Shown here piece by piece: positions 2,887 through 15,115 of a stretch of 33,729 bases of DNA. The stretch is from an uncultured bacterium. Lineage in GTDB: Bacteria > Chloroflexota > Dehalococcoidia > SM23-28-2 > RBG-16-64-32. Made by a program: the position numbers and the translations under genes. The stretch is taken from the NCBI GenBank assembly GCA_965369585.1, contig CBDURB010000001.1, positions 1 through 33,729 of the forward strand. Reading direction: 5' to 3'. The notes below the pieces were generated by a model, which was not told the origin of the DNA, ran no database searches, and was given only the letters and a program-made list of their open reading frames with translations. Positions within the stretch are counted from its first letter, which is position 1. Every line of letters starts with the position of its first letter.

Positions 2887-3336
2887 ATGCCAACCATCCC
2901 TAGAGGGAACGATACACCCTCCGCGACACCAGAGGAAACCCGCGCCGAGCGCGACCCCCTGGACGCCAAGCTGCTCGCGGAGGCGCAGCCCGAGCTGAGC
3001 CAGCACACCCCGATCTGTGTGCCCTGTCAGCGCAACTATCGGTGTGAGCGCAACGGGATTTTCGTGCGGCTCGGCCCCGACGCCATCATCGACGCTGATC
3101 TGTACGAATGCCCCGGCTGTGGGCACCAGATCGTTAGGGGCTTTGCTCGCAAGGCCGTCGAGCGCCACGACAGCGACCCGAAATACCGAGAGGTGTTCGG
3201 CATCGAATCTACGCTGATGGGTGCTGCCACGATCACCGACCACACGGGGCGACCCATCACACAGGGCCAACCCGGCACCATCCCCGCCGAGGACGCGGCA
3301 GAGGCGGCGGGGAGCCAGGGGCACCGCTATGGGTGA
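2887..3336 (+). CDS. zinc-ribbon protein, function unknown
   Basis: ATG 2887 with AAAGGA about 9 nt upstream (trimmed from TTG 2881). CVPCQRNYRC...YECPGCGHQI four-Cys signature. Confidence 0.6.
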   Translation: MPTIPRGNDTPSATPEETRAERDPLDAKLLAEAQPELSQHTPICVPCQRNYRCERNGIFVRLGPDAIIDADLYECPGCGHQIVRGFARKAVERHDSDPKYREVFGIESTLMGAATITDHTGRPITQGQPGTIPAEDAAEAAGSQGHRYG

Positions 3337-3850
3337 GATAGCCTACTTCATCCTGGGCGACTTCCCGTGTTCCATCTGGAAGCATCCCGACCTTGGGACT
3401 CTCCAGGGCTACATTGGCGTGCCGCCTTCCCATCCCTGGTATAGGCAGGACCAAACCATCATGGGCGTTCTTGGCGGGATAGATGTTCACGGCGGAATCA
3501 CCCTTGCCTGCCACGAGAAGTCCTCACGGTGGCCGAGCGAGGAATATCGCGCCGCTATGTTGAAGGCACCCACTGGAGGGCCGTATCCCAAATTGGAGTG
3601 GGTAGACGTGCCGAACAAAGACGGCGCATCTTGGCCCCACGATACGGGGCAGGACGTTTGGTGGATCGGCTTCGATTGCAGCCATCTCTACGACCTTGTT
3701 CCAGCCCACCCGAACCCCGGCGACGTCTACCGAGACGAACGCTATGTCCGCAACGAGCTAGAGGGATTGGCTCGGCAGGCAGCGGAGGCGATGCGGGGCA
3801 TATCACCGGAGGAGCGGGCCGAAGAAGCCGAGCGCGAGGCCGTGCAATGA
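3329..3850 (+). CDS. hypothetical protein with His/Asp-rich conserved blocks
   Basis: Trimmed to ATG 3329 (MGEIAYFILGD...), with an 8-nt overlap on the upstream gene. Blocks VHGGITLA and WWIGFDCSHLYD suggest a metal-dependent enzyme, but I cannot name the family. Confidence 0.6.
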   Translation: MGEIAYFILGDFPCSIWKHPDLGTLQGYIGVPPSHPWYRQDQTIMGVLGGIDVHGGITLACHEKSSRWPSEEYRAAMLKAPTGGPYPKLEWVDVPNKDGASWPHDTGQDVWWIGFDCSHLYDLVPAHPNPGDVYRDERYVRNELEGLARQAAEAMRGISPEERAEEAEREAVQ

Positions 3851-4239
3851 GCACCCTAGAAGACATCCGCGGCTACCCGCCGGATAATCACCTCGACGAT
3901 CTCCGAGCCGACCATCTGTCGGACATCCGCCAGGACGGCAAGCGCGAGGACGCCGAGGACAAGCTGGAGCGCGAATCGCCAGAGCCATGCGGGTGCCAGT
4001 GGCTCAGTGGGTGCTGCGGCGCATCGCCCCACGCGGCCTCGCCGGACGTGAATACGGGCCAGCAAACGGGCATCTGCGGCCAGTGCCGTGACCATGCCGC
4101 CTTCGAGCCGTCCGACGAGAACACATGGAAGCTGACCTCCACGGGCGTCTACGGCGACGACGCGGACGGCAACCGTGGGGTGCCGCTGAAGGCGTGGGAG
4201 TGCCGCGAGTGCGGCCAGGAAGTAGAGGTGACGGGATGA
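3847..4239 (+). CDS. acidic Cys-rich protein, function unknown
   Basis: ATGA overlap at 3847. CGCQWLSGCCG, CGQCRDH and CRECG motifs. Confidence 0.6.
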   Translation: MSTLEDIRGYPPDNHLDDLRADHLSDIRQDGKREDAEDKLERESPEPCGCQWLSGCCGASPHAASPDVNTGQQTGICGQCRDHAAFEPSDENTWKLTSTGVYGDDADGNRGVPLKAWECRECGQEVEVTG

Positions 4240-4901
4240 GTACCGAGACAACACCCCGCGCACGACGGCACACCAGATACTACGACGGCTCCGGCACCCT
4301 GCTGCCCGGCGTCACGACGGTTCTCAACGTCATAGCGAAACCGGCCCTCATAAGTTGGGCCAACAGGATGGGCCTAGAGGGTATCGATACCGCCAAGCAC
4401 GTAGATGCCCTCGCAGGCATCGGCACCCTCGCCCACGCTATGATCGCCGCCCATCTAACCAAGAAGGAAATCGATATAAGCGACTACTCACCAAAGGACG
4501 TATCCAAGGCCGAAAACGCCTGCCTCTCCTTCTTCGAGTGGGCGAAGAAGCGGGAGATAAAGACTGTCCTCAGCGAAGAGCAGCTGGCGTCCGAGGAGTT
4601 TCGCTTCGGCGGCACCTGTGACTGGTATGGGAAGCTGGACGGAACCCTAACGCTCATCGACTTCAAGACAGGAAGAGGACTGTACGACGAGCACACCTAC
4701 CAGCTCGCGGCCTACGCCCACCTGCTGACCGAGAACGGCCACTCCCTCAAGGAGGCGCGGCTCCTCCGCGTCGGACGCACCGAAGATGAGGGCTTTGAGG
4801 AGAGGGTGTACCCCCTGGATGCCTTGGCGCCGTACTTCAACGTGTTCAGGTGTGCCCTGAACCTGTACGTGGCCACCAGGAACGTGAGGAGGTCATCATG
4901 A
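4236..4901 (+). CDS. PD-(D/E)XK (RecB/Cas4-like) exonuclease, recombination partner of Bet
   Basis: ATGA overlap at 4236. GGTCDWYGKLDGTLTLIDFKTG...YQLAAYAHLL gives the D...(D/E)xK...QxxxY nuclease motifs. Sits directly upstream of the annealing protein. Confidence 0.7.
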   Translation: MSTETTPRARRHTRYYDGSGTLLPGVTTVLNVIAKPALISWANRMGLEGIDTAKHVDALAGIGTLAHAMIAAHLTKKEIDISDYSPKDVSKAENACLSFFEWAKKREIKTVLSEEQLASEEFRFGGTCDWYGKLDGTLTLIDFKTGRGLYDEHTYQLAAYAHLLTENGHSLKEARLLRVGRTEDEGFEERVYPLDALAPYFNVFRCALNLYVATRNVRRSS

Positions 4902-5815
4902 CCAACGACGGCAAGGCGGTCGTCAAGCGCGAGGCCGCCATCGTCATCAAGGACACACCGGGCGTACAGAGGGCGCTGGTCTCACGCTTCGGCGAACGGG
5001 ACTTCGGGCAGGCCCTCAGCGTCTCCATGTTCATCGCCCTCTGCAACAAGTACGCCCTCAACCCCTGGATGGGCCATATCACACCCTTCGAGGGGCGCCC
5101 CTACGTCCAGCATGACGGCTGGCTTCATCTCATCAACCGCGAGGCACCCGGCCAACTCTTGCGTCTGGAGTCGCGGCCAGCAACGGACGACGAGTATCGC
5201 CTCTTTCGGGTTTCTACCGACGACTATTTCGCCATTGCCACCATGACCCGGCGCTGGCCTGGCGGCAACGAGGTCACCTTTACTCGGCGGGCGCTCATCC
5301 CGAAGCGACTCACGGAACCATCCGCCAATGAAGCGCGGGCGGTGCAGGAGCGTCCCGGCACGGCCAAGACCCGCCCGCTCGTAGCGGACCCGTGGGATAT
5401 GGCAGAGAAGCAGGCCCGAGTCCGCGTCATGCGGATGGGGTTCAACGACTGCCTGGCGGGACAGTCGGCGATGCCAGCGACGGGGGCGCAGGAGGTGGAG
5501 GTGGATACGAAGACGGGGGAGATCATCGAGGGCGAGGCGGTGCCCGCCGAGAACGGAGCTGACTGGTCCCGCCTGTGGGTCGCCGCCAGTGAGCGCGGGA
5601 TGGATAAGGCCAGCGTCCACGCCCATTTCAACGCTGGCCCCGAGGACGGCGACCTGAAGGCATACGCCATCGACCGGGCGGAGAAGGACGACCTTCCGCT
5701 GCAACAGGTGGTGGAGGATATGGCGGACGAAGTGGGGGGCCTGGGGCAGGACGAGCCCCCGCCGCCGGACGGCGGCCAGCAGACAGAGGAGCCGGAGCCG
5801 ATGGAGGCCGAGTGA
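4898..5815 (+). CDS. bet: Red-beta/Bet (RecT-superfamily) single-strand annealing protein
   Basis: ATGA overlap at 4898 with a GAGGAGG SD. CNKYALNPWMGHITPFEGRPYVQHDGWLHLINRE parallels lambda Bet ANQYGLNPWTKEIYAF...VGVDGWSRIINEN. Confidence 0.7.
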   Translation: MTNDGKAVVKREAAIVIKDTPGVQRALVSRFGERDFGQALSVSMFIALCNKYALNPWMGHITPFEGRPYVQHDGWLHLINREAPGQLLRLESRPATDDEYRLFRVSTDDYFAIATMTRRWPGGNEVTFTRRALIPKRLTEPSANEARAVQERPGTAKTRPLVADPWDMAEKQARVRVMRMGFNDCLAGQSAMPATGAQEVEVDTKTGEIIEGEAVPAENGADWSRLWVAASERGMDKASVHAHFNAGPEDGDLKAYAIDRAEKDDLPLQQVVEDMADEVGGLGQDEPPPPDGGQQTEEPEPMEAE

Positions 5816-6141
5816 TGGACGCGGCACTCCAGGGCGGTTGCCGGTACTGCGGCCAGGTCATCGACCCCAACATGCAGGCCCACGCGATCGTCAACGAGGT
5901 CGCAGCCGAGCACCGGGTTCCGGTGGAGGATATCTACGGTCACAGCCGCAAGGCCTACATCGTTGATGCCCGCGGGTGCTCTATGCGGCGGATCAAGGCT
6001 GAGACGTCTCTGCCACGCGGGGACATCGCTGATCTCTTCGGCCTGGACAGGTCGACCCTCTATCACTATCTCAGCGAGAACGGGAACGGGAGGCGGGCGG
6101 CAGCCGCGGCGGCGGGGCAAAGTAGGCAGGCGCAGGCCTGA
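5815..6141 (+). CDS. DnaA C-terminal-domain-like helix-turn-helix protein
   Basis: TGATG overlap (GTG 5812 is also possible). EDIYGHSRKAYIVDARGCSMRRIKAETSLPRGDIADLFGLDRSTLYHYL resembles Bac_DnaA_C (..SR...v.aR..am...........IG..fg.rdHsTV.h). Confidence 0.55.
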   Translation: MDAALQGGCRYCGQVIDPNMQAHAIVNEVAAEHRVPVEDIYGHSRKAYIVDARGCSMRRIKAETSLPRGDIADLFGLDRSTLYHYLSENGNGRRAAAAAAGQSRQAQA

Positions 6142-6213
6142 CGCGCCGCAGCCTCGCGCTGGCGGTGGCGGTCCTGGTGATCGTCGCCGGCGCGGGAGCG
6201 ATTGGAGGGAACG

Positions 6214-6522
6214 ATGCGAACGATAGCGATGGCGACCTTCTTGGGCAGTTCGGCGATGACGGGCCTGGGCTTGACGCTCTTGTGGGGCTTGGCCCTACAG
6301 CAGACCGTGGCGCTGGTGATCTTCGGGCCGCCGCTGATGCTGCTCTCTGGCGGTATCGTGCTGGGGACACCGAGGGAGAGCCTGGACGACCAGATGGAGG
6401 AGAACCGAACGCACCTACGCCTGAGCCGGGGCCAGCCGCAGAGGCGCCCGCTGGGGCCGGTGAGGCTGCCGTCGAGGAACGGGCACCAGTGGCCGCGGAC
6501 AGCGCGGGAGGCCAGGCGGTAG
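6214..6522 (+). CDS. two-TM small membrane protein with Arg-rich tail (holin-like architecture)
   Basis: ATG 6214 sits 5 nt after GGAGG (6204-6208). MRTIAMATFLGSSAMTGLGLTLLWGLALQQTVALVIFGPPLMLLSGGIVLG. GC3 is very high in this frame all the way to TAG 6520-6522. Confidence 0.55.
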   Translation: MRTIAMATFLGSSAMTGLGLTLLWGLALQQTVALVIFGPPLMLLSGGIVLGTPRESLDDQMEENRTHLRLSRGQPQRRPLGPVRLPSRNGHQWPRTAREARR

Positions 6523-6767
6523 TCGATGCGATCTGCTCTCTGCCCTGGCCTTGCTCGGAAGCCGTCTCAGTGGCCGCTTGCGAATCGACGCTCCAGCCTT
6601 GGAGAACGAATGGCGACCACTACGGGCTGTATCAGTTACGAGGGTCCCTGCACGCTTGGCGCTGGCCGGACTTCTGGGGGACGTGGATGGAGCCTCTGAG
6701 GAACGCGCAGATGGCCTATGAACTGTGGTTCGAGCAGGGCTGGGCTCCGTGGAGCTGCAGGCCGTGA
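6489..6767 (+). CDS. Rpf-like / transglycosylase-like (lysozyme-fold) peptidoglycan hydrolase domain protein; start uncertain
   Basis: AACESTLQPW..NGDHYGLYQL...RNAQMAYELWFEQGWAPWSC matches the Rpf/Transglycosylas pattern (CES..G.W...GNG.YGGLQF...Q...A....G..AWP.C). Upstream of about 6480 this frame has poor GC3, so I start at GTG 6489 rather than GTG 6165. Confidence 0.6.
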   Translation: MAADSAGGQAVVDAICSLPWPCSEAVSVAACESTLQPWRTNGDHYGLYQLRGSLHAWRWPDFWGTWMEPLRNAQMAYELWFEQGWAPWSCRP

Positions 6768-6787
6768 CAAAGGAGGTCACCCCATGA
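6764..6787 (+). other. candidate relay mini-ORF MTKEVTP*
   Basis: GTG 6764 overlaps the upstream stop TGA 6765-6767 (GTGA). Its stop TGA 6785-6787 overlaps the next start ATG 6784 (ATGA). GTGAC/GTCAC arms flank the AAAGGAG SD. Confidence 0.3.
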
Positions 6788-7191
6788 GCCGCCTAGACAT
6801 ACTGAAGGTGGGGCCCACAGCTCTCGTGACCGAGGAGTGTTGCGCCTGTGGCGTGACCTTCGCGCTCCCCGAGAGTCTACGGGACAACCTCTACGCCAAG
6901 AGACGGGGGGCGACCTTTTACTGTCCCAACGGGCACGGTCAGTCCTACACCGGTAAGCCTGATGCTGAGAAGCTAGCTGAGGCTGAACGCAGAAATCTTT
7001 CGCTTCGGCAGCAGTTGGACCAGGTCGAGGCGGACGCCGCTCGCAAGGGGAAGCAGTTGGCATCGCTCAGGAAGCGAGTGAAGAATGGCGTATGCCCTCG
7101 CTGCCGGCGCCACTTCATGAACGTCCAGCGCCACATATCCAACAAGCACCCGGACTTCGCCGCGTCGCAGTCGGGAGAAAAGGCGACATGA
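6784..7191 (+). CDS. zinc-finger / coiled-coil protein, function unknown
   Basis: ATG 6784 after AAAGGAGG. CCACG...CPNGH, then a coiled coil, then CPRCRRHF...HISNKHP. The C-terminus ...ASQSGEKAT is junction-cassette copy 1. Confidence 0.65.
   Translation: MSRLDILKVGPTALVTEECCACGVTFALPESLRDNLYAKRRGATFYCPNGHGQSYTGKPDAEKLAEAERRNLSLRQQLDQVEADAARKGKQLASLRKRVKNGVCPRCRRHFMNVQRHISNKHPDFAASQSGEKAT
7164..7187 (+). repeat. junction cassette copy 1: GTCGC-agtcgggagaaaag-GCGAC
   Basis: Both arms exact, N14 loop. Read as ...ASQSGEKAT* (tail of 6784..7191). GCGACATGA creates the ATGA overlap with start 7188. Confidence 0.8.
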
Positions 7192-7520
7192 CCTGCGGGA
7201 AAGAGACCTATCGGCAGGTCTGGCTTGTCCGCTGTAAGGAGCGCGAATGGACGGTTCCTGCTAGTTGTCAGATCGAGGCGTGGGACGCCACAGTGGGCCA
7301 GCTATCGGAAGATGAGCTTTTCGACGCTTTGGGATTGATAGTCAGGGCGAGACCTGTAGAGGCAGAGGAAGACAGTGATATAGCGGTTCATGCGGTCGGC
7401 CTCGCCATCCGTTATGGCCACGACAATTTGGCTATTGCCGCCGAGGCGGCAGGGCTGCGTATAGGGATGCCATCGGTGAGACAGATTTATGAGGACAGAG
7501 GCGATGACTGGATTCGCTAG
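7188..7520 (+). CDS. hypothetical protein
   Basis: ATGA overlap. Trimmed from the 7092 ORF to MTCGKETYRQ... Confidence 0.6.
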   Translation: MTCGKETYRQVWLVRCKEREWTVPASCQIEAWDATVGQLSEDELFDALGLIVRARPVEAEEDSDIAVHAVGLAIRYGHDNLAIAAEAAGLRIGMPSVRQIYEDRGDDWIR

Positions 7521-7554
7521 CCCTGCGTCGCTCTCCACGGGAAAGGCGACGTAG
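7504..7554 (+). other. candidate relay mini-ORF MTGFASPASLSTGKAT*
   Basis: ATG 7504 lies in the +1 frame inside the end of 7188..7520. It reads through cassette copy 2 and stops at TAG 7552-7554, 2 nt before ATG 7557. Confidence 0.25.
7527..7550 (+). repeat. junction cassette copy 2: GTCGC-tctccacgggaaag-GCGAC
   Basis: Both arms exact, N14 loop. Intergenic, 6 nt upstream of ATG 7557. Confidence 0.8.
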
Positions 7555-7556
7555 CG

Positions 7557-8003
7557 ATGCAGATCATCTCGGCCTACGCCCCACCGACGTTCACGAAACC
7601 GGTGTTCGTGTGGGTATCCTGCCAGTGCGACGACACATGTGTAGAGGTCAACGGAGACATGGCCGAGGGGGCGCATATGATCGGCTGCTTCATCGACGCC
7701 CTGAATGTCGATCACGCGATGGAGACCGCTGGCTATGCCGTTAGTGAAGCACACGGCTCCGGCCACTGGTTCGAGATCGGGCGCTTCCCGAGCTGGTACG
7801 CCGCGATCGAGGTTCATCTCGCCATGGTGAAGGACATGCAGAACGGACGGGGGCAGGAGGCTTGGGAGGCTGGTTACGATCCGTACCTCAAGTTCTACAG
7901 CCAGTTCAAGGACGCTCCGGCCTACGACACCGTGGAGGATCGTGACCGCTTGAAGGCTGCGGCATCGCAGAAGACAGGAAAGGCGACGCGAGATGAAGGA
8001 TAG
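7557..8003 (+). CDS. hypothetical protein
   Basis: 148-aa ORF. The tail ...AASQKTGKATRDEG* contains cassette copy 3. Confidence 0.65.
   Translation: MQIISAYAPPTFTKPVFVWVSCQCDDTCVEVNGDMAEGAHMIGCFIDALNVDHAMETAGYAVSEAHGSGHWFEIGRFPSWYAAIEVHLAMVKDMQNGRGQEAWEAGYDPYLKFYSQFKDAPAYDTVEDRDRLKAAASQKTGKATRDEG
7964..7987 (+). repeat. junction cassette copy 3: ATCGC-agaagacaggaaag-GCGAC
   Basis: One mismatch in the 5' arm, N14 loop. 5 nt upstream of ATG 7993. Confidence 0.7.
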
Positions 8004-8181
8004 GGTCTATATCGGATTTGTTGACGGCAAGCCCCTCCGTGAGCCATACGACCCGTATGGCGTGAGGATGATACCAGTGTTCACTTCGCGGCGAGCCGCC
8101 CGTAAGTGCTTTCAGGATGTGCGAACCTTCATCCTCGTTGCGGAGAAGTCGCAGAAGGACAGAAAGGCGACAGGAGGATAG
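7993..8181 (+). CDS. hypothetical small protein
   Basis: 62 aa, 11-nt overlap with the upstream gene. The tail ...KSQKDRKATGG* contains cassette copy 4. Confidence 0.55.
   Translation: MKDRVYIGFVDGKPLREPYDPYGVRMIPVFTSRRAARKCFQDVRTFILVAEKSQKDRKATGG
8148..8171 (+). repeat. junction cassette copy 4: GTCGC-agaaggacagaaag-GCGAC
   Basis: Both arms exact, N14 loop. Followed by AGGAGG and ATG 8184. Confidence 0.8.
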
Positions 8182-8183
8182 AT

Positions 8184-8672
8184 ATGATCACAGTAATTCT
8201 CGTCACGGCAATCCTGCTGGCGATGCTCATGGTAGGGATCGCTCTTGCGGTGCGCTACCAAAGCGATTCCGCGCCGAACGTCATCGGGACGATCATGATC
8301 ATCATTGGGGCGCTTGGCCTATTCATTTGGGTTTTCATGTCCGCCCTCATTTACTTCAACAGCTTCGCCAGAGCTAGGGAACTGGAGGCTTTCTACCACG
8401 ACACGCGGTCTGCCTACGAGTACACGATCTCAGCTACCGAGGGGGTGGTGATAGACCCCTCACGCACCAGAGGTGACGCCATCACAGACCTCGCCTATCA
8501 GGAACAGGGTCAGGCTGTCAGCGAGCGCATCCGCGAGTTCCGCAACAAGATCACGTGGTACAACGAGGAACTCCGAAAGCTCCAGGGCAGGAACGAATGG
8601 TTCCTCCTCGGAGCACTCTACGAAGATGCCCCGGGGGATCTCAAGCCCATCCGCCTCGGGGGAGTGCCGTAA
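8184..8672 (+). CDS. two-TM membrane protein with cytoplasmic coiled-coil-like C-terminal domain
   Basis: Trimmed to ATG 8184 (MITVILVTAILLAMLMVGIALAV...IMIIIGALGLFIWVFMSALIYF). SD AGGAGG at 8172-8177. Confidence 0.65.
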   Translation: MITVILVTAILLAMLMVGIALAVRYQSDSAPNVIGTIMIIIGALGLFIWVFMSALIYFNSFARARELEAFYHDTRSAYEYTISATEGVVIDPSRTRGDAITDLAYQEQGQAVSERIREFRNKITWYNEELRKLQGRNEWFLLGALYEDAPGDLKPIRLGGVP

Positions 8673-8673
8673 C

Positions 8674-8697
8674 GTCGGCAATGGATACAAAGGCGAC
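8674..8697 (+). repeat. junction cassette copy 5: GTCGG-caatggatacaaag-GCGAC
   Basis: One mismatch, N14 loop. The alternative pairing ACGTCG/CGACGT gives 6 bp. Intergenic. Confidence 0.7.
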
Positions 8698-8701
8698 GTA
8701 A
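8681..8701 (+). other. candidate relay mini-ORF MDTKAT*
   Basis: ATG 8681 lies 8 nt after stop 8672. Its stop TAA 8699-8701 overlaps ATG 8701 (TAATG). Confidence 0.3.
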
Positions 8702-9090
8702 TGAAGGCCCTGACTCTGACTCAGCCGTGGGCGACACTCGTTGCGCTTGGCTACAAGCGGGTTGAAACGCGGTCATGGAAGACGCAGTACCGAGGACCGC
8801 TAGCGATTCATGCGGCAAAGGGCTACCCGGCGTCGGCGCGTCGGTTCGCCGAGCACTTCGGTGGCCTTGCGCGTACCCCGCGTGGCGCCATTGTCTGCAC
8901 CATCGACCTAGTGGACTGCCAGCTAACGGAAGAAGCCGCCCTGAGAATATCGGATTTGGAACTCCATTTGGGGGACTACACACCCGGCCGGTGGGCGTGG
9001 TTGTTCGACTCCGCATCGCTCCGCCTCCTACCGGACCCGATACCGGCGAAGGGCGCACTGGGGCTCTGGGAGTGGGAGCGCGGGCAATGA
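8701..9090 (+). CDS. ASCH-domain protein
   Basis: MKALTLTQPWATLVALGYKRVETRSW... is the typical ASCH N-terminus, and the ~130-aa size fits. Confidence 0.7.
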   Translation: MKALTLTQPWATLVALGYKRVETRSWKTQYRGPLAIHAAKGYPASARRFAEHFGGLARTPRGAIVCTIDLVDCQLTEEAALRISDLELHLGDYTPGRWAWLFDSASLRLLPDPIPAKGALGLWEWERGQ

Positions 9091-9239
9091 CTTCGCAGAC
9101 CTCGGCAAAGGCCAGAAGCTGGCCACCTAAGCGGTGGCCCTGCCCGTCCTGTGGCAGCACCTACGTTGCTGTCAGCCCGGATGGCGACCTCTGGCGTCAT
9201 CGCTGTACCCGCTGCGGCATCAGATGGAGCGCGTCATGA
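9087..9239 (+). CDS. small zinc-ribbon protein
   Basis: ATGA overlap. 50 aa with CPSCG...CTRCG. The N-terminus MTSQTSAKAR is a degenerate cassette copy. Confidence 0.55.
   Translation: MTSQTSAKARSWPPKRWPCPSCGSTYVAVSPDGDLWRHRCTRCGIRWSAS
9092..9115 (+). repeat. degenerate junction cassette copy: TTCGC-agacctcggcaaag-GCCAG
   Basis: Shares TCGCAGACC with copy 8. Keeps the N14 spacing, the AAAG and the reading frame. The 3' arm has decayed (3/5). Confidence 0.4.
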
Positions 9240-9514
9240 CGGTCTACGTTGACGAACTCCGCCGGACACAACGGTCGAAGGCATGGCACTACGGCGAGGC
9301 CTGTCATCTCGTCGCCGACGGCCTGGAGGAGCTACACGCCTTCGCGCGGCGACTCCGGCTGAAGCACCATTGGTTCCAGGATGGGAGGTTCCCTCACTAC
9401 GACCTGACGAAGCATAGGCGGCGCGTAGCCCTGACCCTGGGTGCGGAGGAGATCACGGCCCGCGAGTGGATTCGGCGGGCCCGGTCGCCCATGACAGAAT
9501 CGAAGGCGACATGA
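9236..9514 (+). CDS. DUF4031-family protein
   Basis: MTVYVDELRR...CHLVADGLEELHAFARRLRLKHHWFQDGRFPHYDLT matches the DUF4031 signature. ATGA overlaps at both ends. The tail ...RSPMTESKAT* is cassette copy 6. Confidence 0.7.
   Translation: MTVYVDELRRTQRSKAWHYGEACHLVADGLEELHAFARRLRLKHHWFQDGRFPHYDLTKHRRRVALTLGAEEITAREWIRRARSPMTESKAT
9484..9510 (+). repeat. junction cassette copy 6: GTCGC-N17-GCGAC (GTCGCC/GGCGAC 6-bp arms)
   Basis: Arms exact but the spacing is 17 nt. GCGACATGA gives the ATGA overlap with start 9511. Confidence 0.65.
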
Positions 9515-9699
9515 ACGAGCGCTGCGCCTGCCGCTGCAGCTGCGGAGACTACCGCGCCCGCGGTTGCAGCGACCTCTGCGCGGACTGCTGGCGCCTGTGG
9601 TGCCTAGCCGAGGGTGGGCACGGTCCCGGCGCCATCCTCGACCCTGCCGTGGTGGAGGCCGAGACGCCGCAGCTGGCGCTGCCGATGGAGGCGACATGA
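9511..9699 (+). CDS. Cys-rich small protein
   Basis: MNERCACRCSCGDYRARGCSDLCADCWRLWC... Ends ...MEAT* with GGCGACATGA, i.e. the cassette 3' half only. Confidence 0.5.
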   Translation: MNERCACRCSCGDYRARGCSDLCADCWRLWCLAEGGHGPGAILDPAVVEAETPQLALPMEAT

Positions 9700-9860
9700 G
9701 ATACATCGTGCTCGAAATCATCCTGTTGTTCGCGTTGCCAGCGATCGTCATTTGGCTCGGCGTAATCATGTTCAACGTGGCTGACATGGCTGACGACCTG
9801 CGGACGGTTGTGGACTTCATCGAAGCCTCACCTACGCCGAGCCCGGGTGGTGGCCGATGA
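9696..9860 (+). CDS. small single-TM membrane protein
   Basis: ATGA overlaps at both ends. MRYIVLEIILLFALPAIVIWLGVIMF... Confidence 0.5.
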   Translation: MRYIVLEIILLFALPAIVIWLGVIMFNVADMADDLRTVVDFIEASPTPSPGGGR

Positions 9861-10390
9861 GTTCGCCTACCCCCACAAAGGCGACGGGCGCGCCGACAGC
9901 TGCCGACATGCTGGCTGCCGTGCGAGAGACTCACCACAATCTCTCCTACCGCGAGTCGTGGGCGTTCTTCGATGAGTTGAGGGTCGGGACCGGCTTTGGG
10001 CGTGACAGTCAACAGAGCATCGACGCCTTCGCTATTGCGCTCTGGCCGAGTCACCACTGGGCCAGTCACGCCTACGAGATCAAGACGAGTAGAGCGGACT
10101 TCACGAGGGAGCTGCGCCAACCGTTAAAACGCCGTCCCGCTCTCCGCTACTCGAACATGTACTGGTTCGTGACCCCAGAGGGCATGGTGAAGCCGGAGGA
10201 GACCCCCATTGAGGCCGGCCTTATCGAGGTGACCTGGCGGGGGGGAGGCTTCCCGCGCCGGGAGGACTGGTTCACCAACATCGTCGTCTCAGCGCCCTGG
10301 CGTGACATACCGCCGCCGACTTGGAATCTGTTCGCCTCAGTTGCCCGCCGGGTGGCCCGGCTCGAGAACGGTAAGGGGAGCGAAGTCTAA
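9857..10390 (+). CDS. MmcB-like PD-(D/E)XK-fold protein (putative nuclease)
   Basis: AYEIKTSRADFTRELRQPLKRRPALRYSNMYWFVTPEG resembles the E-x-K..SR.DF...K....fyfv.P pattern of the MmcB family. The N-terminus MSSPTPTKAT is cassette copy 7. Confidence 0.55.
   Translation: MSSPTPTKATGAPTAADMLAAVRETHHNLSYRESWAFFDELRVGTGFGRDSQQSIDAFAIALWPSHHWASHAYEIKTSRADFTRELRQPLKRRPALRYSNMYWFVTPEGMVKPEETPIEAGLIEVTWRGGGFPRREDWFTNIVVSAPWRDIPPPTWNLFASVARRVARLENGKGSEV
9862..9885 (+). repeat. junction cassette copy 7: TTCGC-ctacccccacaaag-GCGAC
   Basis: One mismatch, N14 loop. Lies just inside the 5' end of gene 9857. Confidence 0.65.
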
Positions 10391-11052
10391 TGTCGCAGAC
10401 CGCACAAAAGGCGACGCCGCTCCTGCTGGACCTGTTCTGCGGCGCCGGCGGCGCGGCGATGGGCTACCACCGCGCGGGCTTCGACATCGTCGGCGTGGAC
10501 ATAGAGCCCCAGCCGCGTTACCCGTTCGAGTTCGTGCGGGCCGACGCGCTGACGTTCGCGCTGGACGGCTTCGATGCGATCCACGCGAGCCCACCGTGTC
10601 AGAAATGGCTGTCGTTGACTAAGGCTCCCTGGATGCCTGTCGCTCAACAGCAGCGGCAATACCCGGACTTCTTGACCCCGACCATTAAGCGCCTCGAGGA
10701 GCTGGGGACGCCGTGGGTGTGTGAGAATGTGCCCACGTCGCCGATCCGGCCGGTCCTGGTTCTGTGCGGGTCATCCTTCGAGCTGAAGGTGCGCCGGCAC
10801 CGTCACTTTGCGTCCAACATTCTGCTGTCCAGCTTGGTATGCAGGCACCGGGAACAGGGTCCACCTTTGGGCGTATACGGGAACAGCGGCCCAAAGAACC
10901 CGGGTGGCCGCGGTCGCCGCTACAAGAACCGTGCCGAGGCATCCACAGCGATGGGCGGACTCGACTGGATGACGCTTGTGGAGATGAAACAGGCCATCCC
11001 GCCGGCCTACACGGAATACATCGGGCGGCAACTCATGGCGGTGCTTTCGTAA
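10390..11052 (+). CDS. DNA (cytosine-5)-methyltransferase (short form)
   Basis: Motif I DLFCGAGG, motif IV HASPPCQ, motif VI CENVP. TAATG overlap. The N-terminus MSQTAQKAT is cassette copy 8. Confidence 0.8.
   Translation: MSQTAQKATPLLLDLFCGAGGAAMGYHRAGFDIVGVDIEPQPRYPFEFVRADALTFALDGFDAIHASPPCQKWLSLTKAPWMPVAQQQRQYPDFLTPTIKRLEELGTPWVCENVPTSPIRPVLVLCGSSFELKVRRHRHFASNILLSSLVCRHREQGPPLGVYGNSGPKNPGGRGRRYKNRAEASTAMGGLDWMTLVEMKQAIPPAYTEYIGRQLMAVLS
10392..10415 (+). repeat. junction cassette copy 8: GTCGC-agaccgcacaaaag-GCGAC
   Basis: Both arms exact, N14 loop. TAATGTCGC: the G of the start codon is the first base of the 5' arm. Confidence 0.8.
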
Positions 11053-11084
11053 TGTCGCCCTCCATGCAAAAGGCGATGCCGTGA
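11052..11084 (+). other. candidate relay mini-ORF MSPSMQKAMP*
   Basis: ATG 11052 overlaps the upstream TAA 11050-11052 (TAATG). Its stop TGA 11082-11084 overlaps GTG 11081 (GTGA). Spans cassette copy 9. Confidence 0.35.
11054..11077 (+). repeat. junction cassette copy 9: GTCGC-cctccatgcaaaag-GCGAT
   Basis: The 3' arm ends in T (a G-U pair if RNA). N14 loop. Intergenic between the two methylase genes. Confidence 0.7.
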
Positions 11085-12367
11085 CGGTCGAGATCATCTG
11101 CGCCGACGCCCGCGACGCCCTAGCCGCGATGCCGGACGGCAGCGTCCACGCCTGCATCACGAGCCCGCCGTACTGGGGGCTGCGGGACTACGGCATCGAG
11201 CCGGTTGTCTGGGGCGATGAGGACTGCGAGCACGAGTGGGGCGAGCCGATGGTGGGTGACACTCGGGACGACAACTTCAAGGACTGGACGAACCTAATGC
11301 GGGCCGGGGAAGCGCCGCCCGAGGCACCACATGTTAAGCGATCGCAGGGCGCCTTCTGTCGCCGCTGCAACGCCTGGCGCGGCTCGCTGGGCCTGGAGCC
11401 GACGCCGGAGCTGTACGTGGAGCACGTCGTCCAGGTGATGCGCGAGGTGCGGCGGGTGCTACGGGACGATGGCACGCTGTGGCTGAACCTGGGGGATAGC
11501 TACGCCGCCAGCCGATCCGGCCCGATCGGTGAGAACAGCACGCTCAACGGCAGCCGGCACGCCCCGGCAGAGAGCCGGCGGGCGAAGGAATCTGCTGGCC
11601 GGCCGAACTCGCGCTGGCGTTTCGAGCCGTGGGGCCTCAAGCCCAAGGACCTCTGCGGGATGCCCTGGCGAGTGGCCTTCGCGCTACAGGCGGACGGCTG
11701 GTGGCTGCGGTCGGACATCGTGTGGTCGAAGCCCAACCCCATGCCGGAGTCGGTGACGGACAGGCCGACGCGGAGCCACGAGTACGTCTTCCTGCTCTCG
11801 AAGTCGGCGCGCTACTACTACGACCAGGACGCGATTCGGGAGCCGGCCGCCAGCGGGCCGAGTGACATCAGGAAGATGCTGGAGTCAAAGGAGCGTATCG
11901 GCGGTCGCTACAAGGACGCCGAGGACCCGCTGATGAAGGCTTCGGGCAAGACGAACATCGGGCGCAAGCGAGCGGTCGGCGGGAAGCCGTATCGGAGCGG
12001 CAATAAGGCGCGCAAGGACCGCCACGATCACGGCGGGAACCCCGATCACGATGGACACCAAGCGTTCGGCGTGCCGTGGGAGGACAATGGCCTCGGCCGC
12101 AACCGCCGCTCCGTGTGGGAGATAGCGACGCAGCCGTATCCCGGCGCCCACTTCGCCGTCTTCCCTGAGAAGCTGGTGGAGCCCTGCATCCTGGCGGGCT
12201 GTCCAGAGGGCGGGACGGTCCTGGACCCGTTCGCCGGCAGCGGCACGGTCGGGCTCGTGGCGGAACGGTTGGGCCGGCACTCGGCCCTGATCGACGCCAG
12301 CGAGGACTACTGCCGCATGGCGCGGGAGCGCACGGCCCAGATGGGGCTCATGGAGGCCGCACGGTGA
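11081..12367 (+). CDS. DNA methyltransferase, N4-cytosine/N6-adenine type (PF01555-like, beta class)
   Basis: ITSPPYWGLRDY catalytic (S/D)PPY motif near the N-terminus. C-terminal VLDPFAGSGTVG AdoMet motif. GTG start. Confidence 0.85.
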   Translation: MTVEIICADARDALAAMPDGSVHACITSPPYWGLRDYGIEPVVWGDEDCEHEWGEPMVGDTRDDNFKDWTNLMRAGEAPPEAPHVKRSQGAFCRRCNAWRGSLGLEPTPELYVEHVVQVMREVRRVLRDDGTLWLNLGDSYAASRSGPIGENSTLNGSRHAPAESRRAKESAGRPNSRWRFEPWGLKPKDLCGMPWRVAFALQADGWWLRSDIVWSKPNPMPESVTDRPTRSHEYVFLLSKSARYYYDQDAIREPAASGPSDIRKMLESKERIGGRYKDAEDPLMKASGKTNIGRKRAVGGKPYRSGNKARKDRHDHGGNPDHDGHQAFGVPWEDNGLGRNRRSVWEIATQPYPGAHFAVFPEKLVEPCILAGCPEGGTVLDPFAGSGTVGLVAERLGRHSALIDASEDYCRMARERTAQMGLMEAAR

Positions 12368-12371
12368 AAAC

Positions 12372-12395
12372 GTCGCCTTGTCATGCAACTGCGAT
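12372..12395 (+). repeat. junction cassette copy 10: GTCGC-cttgtcatgcaact-GCGAT
   Basis: N14 loop. Shares GTCGCCTT and CAACTGCGATGGGG with copy 11. The ATG inside GCGATG (12394) is the ATP-grasp start. Confidence 0.7.
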
Positions 12396-13095
12396 GGGGA
12401 AGAGGAACCCGAACAGCTTGCTCTACTGGCTGCCGGCAGTTCAAGAGGCGGGAGTATCGATGCCCCGAACCGAATGCGTCGAGGTCGGGTTGGAGCACTT
12501 CGAGCGATGGCAGAATCACGAGGCACCCCTACCGAAGCCTGAGCGGTTCACGCAGGCGGCGGAGCGAATCGGCTACCCGCTGTTTCTCCGCACCGATCTG
12601 GCGTCTGCAAAGCACCACTGGCTCGATTCCTGCTATGTGGAGAGCCCGGATAACCTACTGCGGCACATCTGGGAGGTAGTCGAGTTCAACTTCATGGTGA
12701 ACATCATAGGGCTGCCTTGCGAGGCGCTGGTGTTCCGTGAGTACGTCCCCTTGGAGTCATCGTTCCGGGCGTTCAACGGGATGCCGGTGGCGCGGGAGCG
12801 TCGGTACTTCGTGAGGGGTGGAGTCATGGAGTGCCATCATCCCTACTGGCCCGAGGACGCCATCGCCACCCACGGCTCGCACAAGCCGATGTTGCCGCCG
12901 GACTGGCGGGCGAAGCTACGGGAACTGAACGCCGAGACAGCGGCGGAGGTCGAGCACCTGACACCGTTGGCTCAACGGGTAGGCGGGATCTTGGGAGGCT
13001 CCTGGTCCGTGGACTTCGCTCGGACGACCGCCGGAGAGTGGCTGCTGATTGACATGGCAGTGGCGGAGGAATCTTATCACGAGGTACATCCTTAA
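12394..13095 (+). CDS. ATP-grasp-fold protein (phage R2K-type), substrate unknown
   Basis: MGKRNPNSLLYWLP... and C-terminal ...GGSWSVDFARTTAGEWLLIDMAVAEESYH are typical of phage ATP-grasp proteins. GTG 12364 (GTGA overlap, in frame) would add MKTSPCHATA. Confidence 0.5.
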   Translation: MGKRNPNSLLYWLPAVQEAGVSMPRTECVEVGLEHFERWQNHEAPLPKPERFTQAAERIGYPLFLRTDLASAKHHWLDSCYVESPDNLLRHIWEVVEFNFMVNIIGLPCEALVFREYVPLESSFRAFNGMPVARERRYFVRGGVMECHHPYWPEDAIATHGSHKPMLPPDWRAKLRELNAETAAEVEHLTPLAQRVGGILGGSWSVDFARTTAGEWLLIDMAVAEESYHEVHP

Positions 13096-13133
13096 TGTCG
13101 CCTTCCCGTACAACTGCGATGGGGCCACGATGA
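13095..13133 (+). other. candidate relay mini-ORF MSPSRTTAMGPR*
   Basis: ATG 13095 overlaps TAA 13093-13095 (TAATG). TGA 13131-13133 overlaps ATG 13130 (ATGA). Spans cassette copy 11. Confidence 0.35.
13097..13120 (+). repeat. junction cassette copy 11: GTCGC-cttcccgtacaact-GCGAT
   Basis: N14 loop. Intergenic. Confidence 0.7.
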
Positions 13134-14152
13134 GCGACAAGAGCGCCATCGAGTGGACCGACGCTACCTGGAACCCCGTGACGGGCTGCACGAAGGTCAG
13201 CCCCGGCTGCGCCAACTGCTACATCGAGAGGACGCCGGCGTTCCGCATGACGGGCCAGCGGTTCGAGCGTGGCCGCATCCCCGTCCGGCTGCACCACGAT
13301 CGCCTGGACCAACCCCTTCACTGGCGGGAGCCGCGGCGGGTGTTCGTGGTGTCGATGGGGGATCTGTTCCACGAGGACGTGCCGGACGAGTTCATTGACC
13401 AGGTGTTCGCGGTGATGGCGATATCCCCTCAGCACACGTATCAGGTTCTCACGAAGCGCCCGGAGCGTATGCGGGCCTACATAGCCGCAGGGGAGCGCCC
13501 CGTTCGTTTCCATGATGGCTCACTCAGCCCCAGGCCCGCGAGTACTGCGACGAAGGTTCTCTGGGCTGCTCAGAACGACGGGCACGCGCTCTACAGTGAC
13601 GATATGGAATGGCCGCTCCCGAACGTGTGGCTCGGCGTCTCGGTGGAGAACCAGCGCATGGCCGACGAGCGCATACCGCTGCTGCTGGAGACGCCCGCCG
13701 CCGTGCGGTTTCTGTCCTGCGAGCCGCTGCTGGGGCCGCTGGACCTTGCTCGGTACATGACGCCAAAGCGCGAGCTAGACCGATATGAGGCGGAGGCCGT
13801 CAGCGCCTATGGCGGCAATCCGGCGTGGGGGCGATGGTGGGAACCACCCCTCGACTGGGTGATCGTGGGCGGCGAGAGCGGGCCAGGGCGGGCCGAGCGG
13901 AAGCTGGTGGAGCGGAACACTGATGCTGCTGGCGTTGACGCTAATCAGGCACCGCGTCATCTACCGGTATTGTGGGAACCCAAGTACGAAGCCTTGATGT
14001 GGCTGCGCTCCATCCGCGACCAGTGCCAGGCGGCGGGGGTGCCGTTCTTCTTCAAGCAGTGGGGCGGCCCCAGGCCCACGTCCGGCGGGCGGCTGCTGGA
14101 CGGCCGCGAGTGGAACGAGATGCCGCTACAGCGATCGGCGGTGCTGGCGTGA
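13130..14152 (+). CDS. phage Gp37/Gp68 family protein (DUF5131)
   Basis: Trimmed to ATG 13130. MSDKSAIEWTDATWNPVTGCTKVSPGCANCY is the hallmark N-terminus, and ...WVIVGGESGP... FFFKQWGG is the hallmark C-terminus. Confidence 0.8.
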   Translation: MSDKSAIEWTDATWNPVTGCTKVSPGCANCYIERTPAFRMTGQRFERGRIPVRLHHDRLDQPLHWREPRRVFVVSMGDLFHEDVPDEFIDQVFAVMAISPQHTYQVLTKRPERMRAYIAAGERPVRFHDGSLSPRPASTATKVLWAAQNDGHALYSDDMEWPLPNVWLGVSVENQRMADERIPLLLETPAAVRFLSCEPLLGPLDLARYMTPKRELDRYEAEAVSAYGGNPAWGRWWEPPLDWVIVGGESGPGRAERKLVERNTDAAGVDANQAPRHLPVLWEPKYEALMWLRSIRDQCQAAGVPFFFKQWGGPRPTSGGRLLDGREWNEMPLQRSAVLA

Positions 14153-14484
14153 AGGCGCGCGATCTCCGGCTGCGCGTCACGGAGGAGGATTACCAGCAGC
14201 AGATCGTTGACCTGGCGGGGTTCTACCGCTGGGACCATCGCTACCACACGCACGATAGCCGGCGAAGCGCCGCTGGCTTCCCCGACTTGGTGATGATCCA
14301 CGTCCGCAGCAAGCGGATTATCTTCACAGAAATAAAGGCGATGAAGGGGGAGCTCTCGCTTGATCAGCGGGAATGGTTGTGGGATCTTGCGACGGCCGGC
14401 GCCGAGGTCTACGTGTTCGATCCGGCCAACTGGAATCTGGTCGTAGACGTTCTGAGTGGAACCCATAGGAGCCCCAGCACATGA
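14149..14484 (+). CDS. VRR-NUC domain nuclease
   Basis: GTGA overlap. ...GFPDLVMIH...IFTEIKAMKGELSLDQREW gives the D...ExK...Q motif set of VRR-NUC. Confidence 0.75.
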   Translation: MKARDLRLRVTEEDYQQQIVDLAGFYRWDHRYHTHDSRRSAAGFPDLVMIHVRSKRIIFTEIKAMKGELSLDQREWLWDLATAGAEVYVFDPANWNLVVDVLSGTHRSPST

Positions 14485-14798
14485 GCGATGTAGCAAAGGA
14501 CATCCTGCAACACGTCGAGGACAACAAGGAGGAAATCGAGCGGCAGCTATCGCGTGACGGCCTAGAGGTGACGATCTCAACGAACCTCGGCAGTAGTGGA
14601 AGGAGAGCCCGCGTGAAGAACACCCGCACGACCCTGGATAGCATCAAGGTGAAGCCCGACGAGAAGGGGCCAGTCACCACCATCACCCTCAGGGCCCGCC
14701 TGTCCCGAGAGGAGCTAGCCGATCTCTACGACTTCCTACTGCTAGAGGACGGCGCCCTGGACGTGACCCTCGAGAGCAAGCAAGCGGCCTTCGCGTAG
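14481..14798 (+). CDS. hypothetical protein
   Basis: ATGA overlap. 105-aa acidic protein. Confidence 0.6.
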   Translation: MSDVAKDILQHVEDNKEEIERQLSRDGLEVTISTNLGSSGRRARVKNTRTTLDSIKVKPDEKGPVTTITLRARLSREELADLYDFLLLEDGALDVTLESKQAAFA

Positions 14799-14803
14799 CG
14801 CCA

Positions 14804-14959
14804 ATGGCCCGCAACGAGCGCTGGTTCGAGATGAACTGGTACGACGGCCACAACCGCAAGCCCGGGAAGCGCCGCAAGAGGTGGCGCCACCGGTTTATAC
14901 GCAGGTTTCAACGCTCTCAACGAAGGAGGTCCGCACAGCTCCAACTGATCCCGGCCTAG
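14804..14959 (+). CDS. small highly basic protein (51 aa)
   Basis: Not in the ORF track (<60 aa). MARNERWFEMNWYDGHNRKPGKRRKRWRHRFIRRF..., with near-uniform G/C third positions in the first ~30 codons. Confidence 0.4.
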   Translation: MARNERWFEMNWYDGHNRKPGKRRKRWRHRFIRRFQRSQRRRSAQLQLIPA

Positions 14960-15067
14960 CGCCGGACACATGCTGGCCCGCCTCGCCCGGATTTTGCTCC
15001 AGCACCTTACCGGGTGGGCGGGTCGGCTCCCGCACCGCTGTCGGCGCCGGCGGCGGAACAGAATAGC

Positions 15068-15091
15068 ATCGCCTTTCGGGACATAGGCGAC
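15068..15091 (+). repeat. junction cassette copy 12 (decayed): ATCGC-ctttcgggacatag-GCGAC
   Basis: N14 spacing is kept, but AAAG has become ATAG, creating an in-frame TAG. Upstream of the strong SD of gene 15116. Confidence 0.5.
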
Positions 15092-15115
15092 AAATAGAAA
15101 GGAGGTGATCAGACA

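Follow-up and report, generated by a model that had tools for sequence, protein, structure and literature searches.

The early operon of the DNA stretch analysed here (the window: 33,729 nucleotides of contig CBDURB010000001.1 from an uncultured bacterium, 64% GC, with the content of a phage or prophage) carries a short element that recurs at its gene junctions and that we call the junction cassette. Five very short open reading frames (mini-ORFs) occupy gaps in this operon. An original prediction had taken them as relay cistrons that hand ribosomes from one gene to the next, and all five translate exactly as it described. Four of them, at 7504-7554, 8681-8701, 11052-11084 and 13095-13133, lie on cassette copies. 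We regard it as fairly probable that these mini-ORFs derive from a portable gene-junction cassette, as its free-standing or hybrid copies, and are not a purpose-built relay. At most junctions the cassette amounts to no more than ~9 codons at the end or the beginning of a real gene, and cassettes coincide with insertion, deletion and replacement boundaries between relatives. The same ~27 bp make up a gene end, the ribosome-binding region of the next gene and probably a crossover point.

Sequence and distribution of the junction cassette

The cassette was noticed from the junctions, where AAAGGCGAC repeats just 5' of start codons. Site alignment gives an element of ~27 bp, (G/A)TCGC(A/C)G followed by 8 variable nt and AAAGGCGAC, with a stop/start overlap 0-12 nt beyond (consensus TCGCAG-N8-AAAGGCGAC). 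AAAGGCGA occurs 11 times against 0.75 expected, and TCGC-N11-AAGGCGA with at most one mismatch gives 15 matches at 12 loci against 1.07 expected, all within 7165-15090. Weak copies at 9088 and 9483 emerge from a profile search, which finds no further copy over the rest of the 33.7-kb window; the total is 12-13 copies, all within 7160-15092 and all at gene junctions of the early operon. With the genes numbered g1 to g26 along the operon, every junction from g9/g10 through g22/g23 has at least a partial cassette except g15/g16 (g17/g18 has the right arm only), and the element brackets almost every gene from g10 to g22. Most copies are in forward orientation, two are fully reversed and two near-palindromic. 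The inverted core TCGC...GCGA (TCGC-N15-GCGA) is invariant and is flanked by asymmetric conserved blocks. No Rfam family was found in the window, and no promoter-like or terminator-like site at any copy.

On the + strand, the first copy (7160-7191) forms the last 9 codons of g9 (..ASQSGEKAT up to the stop) and its AAAGGCGAC abuts ATG 7188 (ATGA). The second (7524-7554) stands free in the 36-nt g10/g11 gap and holds the 3' part of mini-ORF 7504-7554. Copies three and four are embedded in gene 3' ends, at 7959-7990 in g11 (..SQKTGKATRDEG, orthologous to the g11 end ..SQTTGKATP of the relative L106) and at 8148-8172 in g12 (..SQKDRKATGG, followed by a canonical AGGAGG and ATG 8184). The fifth (8669-8702) is again free-standing, in the 28-nt g13/g14 gap, and contains mini-ORF 8681-8701. 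Further along the + strand come a weak copy with 1 mismatch in the first codons of g15 (9088-9114, MTSQTSAKA..), a copy with a longer spacer at the g16 3' end (9483-9514, ..MTESKAT, ATGA), a right arm only at the g17 3' end (9688-9695, GAGGCGAC, ..MEAT), a copy in the N-terminal codons of g19 (9858-9887, MSSPTPTKAT..) and one at the g20 start (10388-10419, TAATG, MSQTAQKATP..). The free-standing, near-palindromic copy at 11049-11084 matches both strands and is mini-ORF 11052-11084. Both reversed copies are on the - strand, one at the g21/g22 junction (12369-12399, containing ATG 12394) and one in the 34-nt g22/g23 gap (13093-13133, with the cassette at 13093-13124), whose + strand is mini-ORF 13095-13133. 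The last copy in the window is near-palindromic and lies in a ~150-nt non-coding stretch after g26 (15064-15092).

The reversed copy at the g21/g22 junction bears on the start of g22, an ATP-grasp gene. Its homologues begin MQSVKRNPNS (in L219) and MKRNPNS (in L220), and g22 probably starts at ATG 12394 inside the cassette rather than at GTG 12364. With that start, the g21/g22 GTGA overlap becomes a 26-nt gap that is also cassette-bearing. The in-frame extension upstream of ATG 12394 is cassette-derived.

All 15 gene-embedded copies read AAG-GCG-ACN (..S..KAT), ten at gene 3' ends, with the stop 3-7 codons on, and five at gene 5' ends. Wherever the cassette occurs it is crossed by a frame in the same phase, which can be that of a mini-ORF or that of a flanking gene (the upstream gene at its 3' end, the downstream gene at its 5' end). 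To explain this frame lock it would suffice that the cassettes descend from a common ancestor, and an exotic cause seems unneeded; it would also help that indels between the motif and the overlapping stop/start have to be multiples of 3. Because TCG and GCG are invariant at synonymous positions and reversed copies exist, the constraint is on the nucleotides and not on the peptide; the third position of the Thr codon in KAT is the first base beyond the motif. A function at the peptide level, as an S..KAT tail or as the spacer peptide of the original prediction, was rejected on these grounds, the two reversed copies reading S-P..T-A-M. The similarity noted earlier between two mini-ORF peptides, MSPSMQKAMP and MSPSRTTAMGPR, is real, its source being the DNA repeat TAATGTCGCC(C/T)TCC...GCGATG, which at 13093-13124 is a cassette on the opposite strand. 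For annotation, this advises against calling the mini-ORFs genes or inferring peptide similarity from them, and N- or C-terminal "KAT" tails are to be flagged as cassette-derived.

Module boundaries and the probable origin of the mini-ORFs

Relatives of the window were collected as contigs from g22 and g11 protein searches, contig look-ups and one pattern match. The latter came from an exact-pattern scan of IMG/VR with TCGCAG-N8-AAAGGCGAC, which gave 120 single matches, nearly all of them chance; one, L106, is a true relative. IMG/VR scans with g11 and g19 gave no matches, and scans with DUF5131 and the methylase only matches of at most 54% identity, without synteny or cassette save for a few shared genes. 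L106 and the window have g1, g5, g7, g11 and g21 in common, in the same order. There, g11 ends in ..SQTTGKATP and overlaps the g21 start by GTGA, with a single cassette and no mini-ORF. The left part of this junction corresponds to window 7964-7989 and the right part to the window from 11078 on. L106 thus lacks g12-g20, a block of ~3.1 kb that in the window lies between two cassettes.

Two single genes, g20 and g22, are bracketed by direct repeats with a unit of ~31 nt. The pair around g20 (10388-10419 and 11050-11081) is 78% identical, the pair around g22 (12369-12399 and 13094-13124) 84%. Each time, the upstream copy is the start region of the gene and the downstream copy is a strict mini-ORF (11052-11084 and 13095-13133, respectively). 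Mini-ORF 11052-11084 is a hybrid: its left half matches the g20 start (TAATGTCGC) and its right half is identical to the g21 junction of L106 (AAAGGCGAyGCCGTGACGGTCGAGATC). In L106, a 545-codon gene terminates at the TAG that closes mini-ORF 7504-7554, and this mini-ORF reads as a vestigial gene end. L219 has a ~35-nt direct duplication (2415-2451 and 2586-2620) of the 3' end of its DUF5131 gene (GATGCCGCAGCGGGAGGCrGTGCyrGCGTGAA), which flanks a 46-aa hydrophobic ORF inserted after DUF5131; the second copy is the double-overlap mini-ORF VMPQREAVPA (GTGA...GTGA). This is a clear, textbook scar of junction duplication and displays the process directly.

Clear cassettes are found in L300, L302, L106, L303 and L305, few of them in the latter two, while L301 has right-arm-like matches only. 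They precede different genes in different relatives, and with proteins 55-79% identical the cassette is better conserved than the proteins. L300, whose ATP-grasp protein is 55% identical, has 4-5 cassettes in 2.4 kb, with gene ends ..GKATP (ATGA), ..GKATD (TAATG) and ..RKATG; its ATP-grasp gene starts with GTGACTTCGCAGACGCGCACAAAGGCGACC (VTSQTRTKAT), and the N-terminus in L302 is the same. L219 has an 86% identical ATP-grasp protein and a gene for a helix-turn-helix (HTH)/sigma-r4 protein that starts MTSQTAQSVT and is unrelated to g20 of the window (MSQTAQKAT). Free-standing double-overlap mini-ORFs recur in L303 (4957-4989, VTSVFTGKAT, GTGA...ATGA) and L305 (7791-7811, MTGKAT, ATGA...ATGA), both with a g11 73-79% identical. 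Most short gaps in the relatives have a canonical Shine-Dalgarno sequence (SD) and no bridging ORF.

Two observations on the relatives stand apart. Between ATP-grasp and DUF5131, where the window has a 12-codon mini-ORF, L219 has a 46-codon Ala/Gly-rich ORF (1403-1543) with GTGA and ATGA ends that spans the 133-nt gap before DUF5131. Over its three codon positions the GC content stays flat (0.72/0.65/0.65), which makes a real protein gene improbable, though the JGI pipeline called it. From 5216 onwards, L303 reads ..SPKAGKAT with a GTGA overlap and then GTGACCACTACCCGCGTACCCGCCTG, which matches the start of L305 gene 8260 (MTVTRVSAC..); the 531-nt gap in the gene calls of L303 there is a missed gene or a pseudogene.

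How cassette copies could give rise to mini-ORFs can be outlined. Recombination between cassettes would move single genes in and out of the operon, possibly performed by the phage's own exonuclease/annealase pair (g4, g5). Joining an ATG-carrying cassette, such as those at the g15, g19 and g20 starts, to the 3' half of another gene's cassette would create an ORF of 6-12 codons. This hybrid would inherit the overlap of upstream stop and start on one side and that of stop and downstream start on the other. The cassette may double as a translational junction, with AAAGG as a weak SD and a crossing frame that stops at or beside the next start, so that downstream genes would probably be translated mainly by termination-reinitiation. 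Ribosomes probably run through mini-ORFs 11052 and 13095 and perhaps through 8681, as a by-product of how the cassette is built. A relay through cassette mini-ORFs is mechanistically plausible; it looks like a by-product of module shuffling and not like a dedicated architecture.

Translation signals and rival explanations

How far the five mini-ORFs exceed chance was assessed by randomising the gap interiors while the flanks were kept fixed. VTKEVTP (6764-6787, GTGA...ATGA) lies off the cassette and spans AAAGGAGGT, the canonical SD of g9. A bridging ORF at 6768-6783 appears in ~90% of the randomised trials. This mini-ORF is uninformative, because a bridging ORF is near-inevitable there and the gap also holds the strong g9 SD (-13.0 kcal/mol). 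For the remaining four gaps the chance of a bridging ORF is 0.04-0.15 each. Under loose criteria these values multiply to ~2e-4; the four events are not independent, because all lie on copies of one repeated element, and this element is what makes the four non-random. Open frames arising by chance in DNA of 64% GC, where stops are rare, beside ordinary ATGA/GTGA junctions are a highly improbable account of the set. The near-inevitable frame at 6764-6787 and the very common ATGA-type contexts of the operon speak for it; the low chance in the other four gaps, their placement on one element with 12 loci against ~1 expected and the recurrence of cassette ORFs in relatives speak against it. The chance explanation is refuted for four of the five and retained for 6764-6787 only.

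The geometry of the mini-ORFs differs. A reachable start, together with a stop that overlaps or abuts the next start, is present in 6764-6787, MSPSMQKAMP (11052-11084, TAATG...GTGA) and MSPSRTTAMGPR (13095-13133, TAATG...ATGA). It is present partly in MDTKAT (8681-8701), which starts 8 nt past the upstream stop and ends in TAATG, and poorly in MTGFASPASLSTGKAT (7504-7554), which starts 17 nt inside g10 and has no SD. Double overlaps are confirmed for the first three and do not hold for the other two. A programmed frameshift from g13 or g10 into the KAT frame was considered as well and rejected, the required shifts being inconsistent (-1 and +1) and the alternative frames having a low GC content at third codon positions (GC3, 0.43-0.53).

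From the right arm to the start codon the distance is 0 nt (7188, 9511, 9696), 3 nt (8701, 11081), 5 nt (7993), 6 nt (7557) or 12 nt (8184); four cassettes instead lie just 3' of the start codon, as N-terminal codons. The L106 junction orthologous to window 7557 reads GGGGAAAAGGAGGCGTAGCGATG, with AAAAGGAGGCG where the window has AAAGGCGACG, and a canonical SD (AAGGAGG) stands at the position of the window's AAAGGCGAC. The cassette motif hence occupies the SD position. Pairing energies with the anti-SD, for which a generic 16S tail was assumed, are weak at cassette-preceded starts: -4.4 to -5.3 kcal/mol in four of five (7557, 8701, 11081 and 13130, the starts behind the four cassette gaps) and -7.4 at 7188, compared to -9 to -13 kcal/mol at canonical starts of the same operon. 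Of 12 minimum-free-energy folds (-6 to -15 kcal/mol), 11 show the cassette arms paired, with modest z-scores (mean -1.6) and no T-run. The arms show no covariation: the core pairs, four in number, never vary, and changes in the outer pairs yield none. An RNA hairpin is conceivable but was not adopted as the explanation of the cassette, given the modest z-scores and the absence of covariation.

A second type of junction also recurs, (C)TGGAGGCG-N2-3-ATGA, read as ..(L/M)EA(Q/K/T/E) before the stop. It is found in L303 (6707, 6988, 7392), L305 (9276), the window (5815, 9696, 12364) and L306 (1159). It has a canonical GGAGG at the phase and 4-nt spacing of the cassette AAAGG, and the two types share the core AGGCG-NN-ATGA.

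A set of relay cistrons maintained by selection, in which the ribosome reinitiates on each mini-ORF, reads 6-16 codons and terminates on the next start, would form an obligatory chain across the long gaps. The genes behind cassette gaps start 28-36 nt from the upstream stop and have weak SDs, and termination-reinitiation is mostly lost at such distances, coupling being largely lost beyond ~20 nt (PMC10666635). Mini-ORFs 11052 and 13095 begin with the TAATG arrangement that is in use at the g20 start (10390). Double-overlap cassette ORFs occur again in L303 and L305, the 46-codon ORF of L219 bridges a long gap, and strict double-overlap bridging ORFs span 8 of 20 gaps of 8-50 nt in the window and relatives. 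Folding predictions would allow the cassette arms to sequester the SD until a ribosome passes, and the idea that a short ORF merely delivers a ribosome has already been proposed (PMC12548453). Against this stand the orthologous g21 junction of L106, which has no mini-ORF, and the finding that both strict cases are duplicated repeat copies around a single gene. The mini-ORF at 7504-7554 is the vestige of a gene end with poor start geometry, the start geometry at 8681 is also poor, and 6764-6787 is at chance level with a strong independent SD downstream. Moreover, most short gaps of the relatives lack a bridging ORF and simply have a canonical SD; the relatedness of the peptides is that of a DNA repeat in opposite orientations. 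We hold a selected relay to be unlikely. The systematic relay first proposed is partly supported, by the non-random cassette ORFs and their recurrence in relatives, the weak SDs, the gaps of 28-36 nt and the shared TAATG start; the ORFs themselves are copies of the junction cassette and not a separate device.

Alternatively, the cassette could be a double-stranded DNA operator, similar to a stoperator or to the extended start-associated sequences (ESAS) of mycobacteriophages, with a regulator that binds TCGC-N15-GCGA at a dozen sites and tunes transcription; mini-ORFs and frame regularity would then be incidental. This fits the invariant inverted core with its asymmetric conserved blocks, the two fully reversed copies and the two near-palindromic ones, one of the latter (15064-15092) in non-coding DNA, and the HTH proteins encoded in the window. 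It also fits arm variation without RNA covariation, from which the ESAS authors argued likewise for DNA binding (PMC3203893). The spacing to start codons is, however, very tight (0-12 nt, with a single exception to the 3-nt steps), orientation is strongly biased along transcription, and the orthologous site in L106 has a canonical SD in place of the right arm. A single frame in 15 of 15 gene-embedded copies is not required of an operator, and the binding protein is postulated. We consider an operator quite unlikely.

Finally, the cassette might be a self-contained portable translational coupler, whose arms sequester a deliberately weak SD that could be opened, for reinitiation, only by a ribosome which reads through the element in the fixed frame and stops right beside it. 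We give this only a small probability. If it were true, each mobile gene module would bring its own plug-in junction, 6-12-codon mini-ORFs would be kept by selection where a module lands away from a gene end, and the early operon would be one obligatory ribosome relay with a frame lock that is functional and not inherited. The cassette would then be a compact natural part for translationally coupled operons.

Several points weigh against our favoured interpretation of the mini-ORFs as free-standing or hybrid cassette copies. Translation of every mini-ORF is something we infer. The predicted cassette hairpin is modest (mean z -1.6) and lacks support from covariation, and the TCGC...GCGA core with its two reversed copies might fit the site of a DNA-binding protein equally well as a translation signal or even better. 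The figure of 8 strict bridging ORFs in 20 gaps has no baseline from unrelated high-GC phages, and selection for such ORFs is conceivable. The relatives are few, mostly short metagenomic contigs and not mutually independent. L303 and L305 have few cassettes, and at the 3' end of g11 the element has decayed in both of them as well as in L306, so the cassette is not indispensable.

Among known systems, the start-associated repeats (SAS) and ESAS of Cluster K mycobacteriophages (PMC3203893) are the closest analogue, of which the cassette is not a member. Both are short asymmetric repeats in about a dozen copies, limited to the non-structural part of the genome (PMC3203893). In either case they lie a few nt 5' of starts at the position of the ribosome-binding site (RBS), combine an SD-like core with conserved bases that cannot pair with 16S rRNA, have nearly one orientation with rare reversals and are conserved in related phages before different gene families. 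Both contain an inverted-repeat component, the variation of which in neither case favours an RNA hairpin, and the upstream stop is sometimes inside the repeat. The sequences differ (TCGCAG-N8-AAAGGCGAC in the cassette, 5'-GGGATAGGAGCCC in SAS), the lineage of the cassette is uncultured and unrelated, and its SD core is weak (AAAGG). Unlike SAS, the cassette is mostly within coding sequence in one fixed frame, several copies being the first ~9 codons of a gene, and it brackets single genes as direct-repeat pairs; coding-frame embedding and bracketing are not described for SAS. The PromoterEarly stem-loop (PeSL) cassettes of T4-type phages (PMC2839356, PMC4122927) resemble it in another respect, as small repeats that flank single early genes, for the most part small or accessory ones, within a plastic region, with indel and replacement boundaries between related phages in the cassettes and inter-cassette recombination as the proposed mechanism. 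PeSL are, in contrast, intergenic and consist of a sigma-70 promoter and a terminator stem-loop. The junction cassette has neither; it is roughly half as large, extends into coding sequence and is placed at a translation junction. It would combine start-associated repeats and recombinogenic cassettes in one element.

Stoperators are 13-bp repressor-binding sites that block elongation. Those of Cluster A mycobacteriophages (cited in PMC3203893) are likewise many short asymmetric sites, in or near short intergenic spaces of one long transcription unit, whose orientation follows transcription. There is no sequence similarity, and the start-codon phasing of the cassette has no counterpart. Leader-ORF translational coupling is exemplified by tap-repA of plasmid R1. 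As in systems of termination-reinitiation and ribosome delivery by short upstream ORFs (PMC6728339, PMC10666635, PMC12548453), the junctions here are of the -4/-1 nt type with a stop overlapping the next start, and the downstream RBSs are weak or possibly structured, which matches how a relay would work. Known leader ORFs differ in being a single regulatory ORF before one gene, whereas here repeat copies are shared with gene ends and starts. The window offers an example, at the sequence level, of an uncultured phage lineage that shuffles single early genes, and a testable account of how tiny double-overlap ORFs accumulate in such operons.

The early operon and its surroundings

The early/middle operon (2887-14959) consists of 26 co-directional genes on the + strand, reconstructed from ORFs and junctions with Pfam and PHROG matches. 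Its genes serve recombination, replication and DNA modification; among the products are a PD-(D/E)XK exonuclease, a Bet-like annealing protein and a DnaA_C-type HTH protein, as well as ASCH, DUF4031, C5-methylase-like, N6/N4 methylase, R2K ATP-grasp, DUF5131 and VRR-NUC proteins. Downstream follow a ParB-methyltransferase, the large terminase and portal/head genes. No close relative at the DNA level was found among cultured phages, nor one for the large terminase or g11 proteins.

The original observation is largely correct. The claim that nearly every junction is an overlap proved overstated, since only 16 of the 25 junctions overlap: twelve by 4 nt (ATGA/GTGA), two by 1 nt (TGATG 5815, TAATG 10390), one by 8 nt and one by 11 nt. 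The other nine are gaps of 72, 47, 16, 36, 2, 28, 28, 34 and 5 nt. The tight packing of the operon is by itself ordinary, since no distances between prokaryotic genes are more frequent than -4 and -1 nt (PMC10666635). Nor is 6142-6213 the only real break, because 6523-6569 is a second unbridged stretch. Gene calls are ambiguous at 6523-6783, on which the chain proposed earlier relies. Candidates are a frame-0 ORF from ATG 6526 to 6699 (GC3 0.55) and a frame-2 ORF ending at 6767 with possible starts at GTG 6489 or 6570 and ATG 6687 or 6711; a clear SD is not seen at 6523-6783.

Three DNA methyltransferase-like genes are present in the window (10390-12367 and 17602-18885), namely g20, g21 and the ParB-methyltransferase fusion. 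The first encodes a short C5-methylase-like protein of 220 aa whose Pfam match is confined to the N-terminal motif region; it is a cassette-bracketed module absent from L106, and g21 is the N6/N4 methylase.

No terminator-like site was found on the + strand of the operon. Within the first 17 kb, the sequence most similar to a sigma-70 promoter (2092-2119, + strand, TTGACA-16-CATAAT, 11/12) lies just 5' of the first small + strand ORFs (from ~2127) and is followed by no + strand terminator-like site up to 17000; it may drive the whole early operon. At the other end, the non-coding stretch 14960-15115 contains the most palindromic cassette (15064-15092), followed by AAAGGAGGTGA and GTG 15116, and may mark where the cassette-rich early block gives way to the next expression unit.

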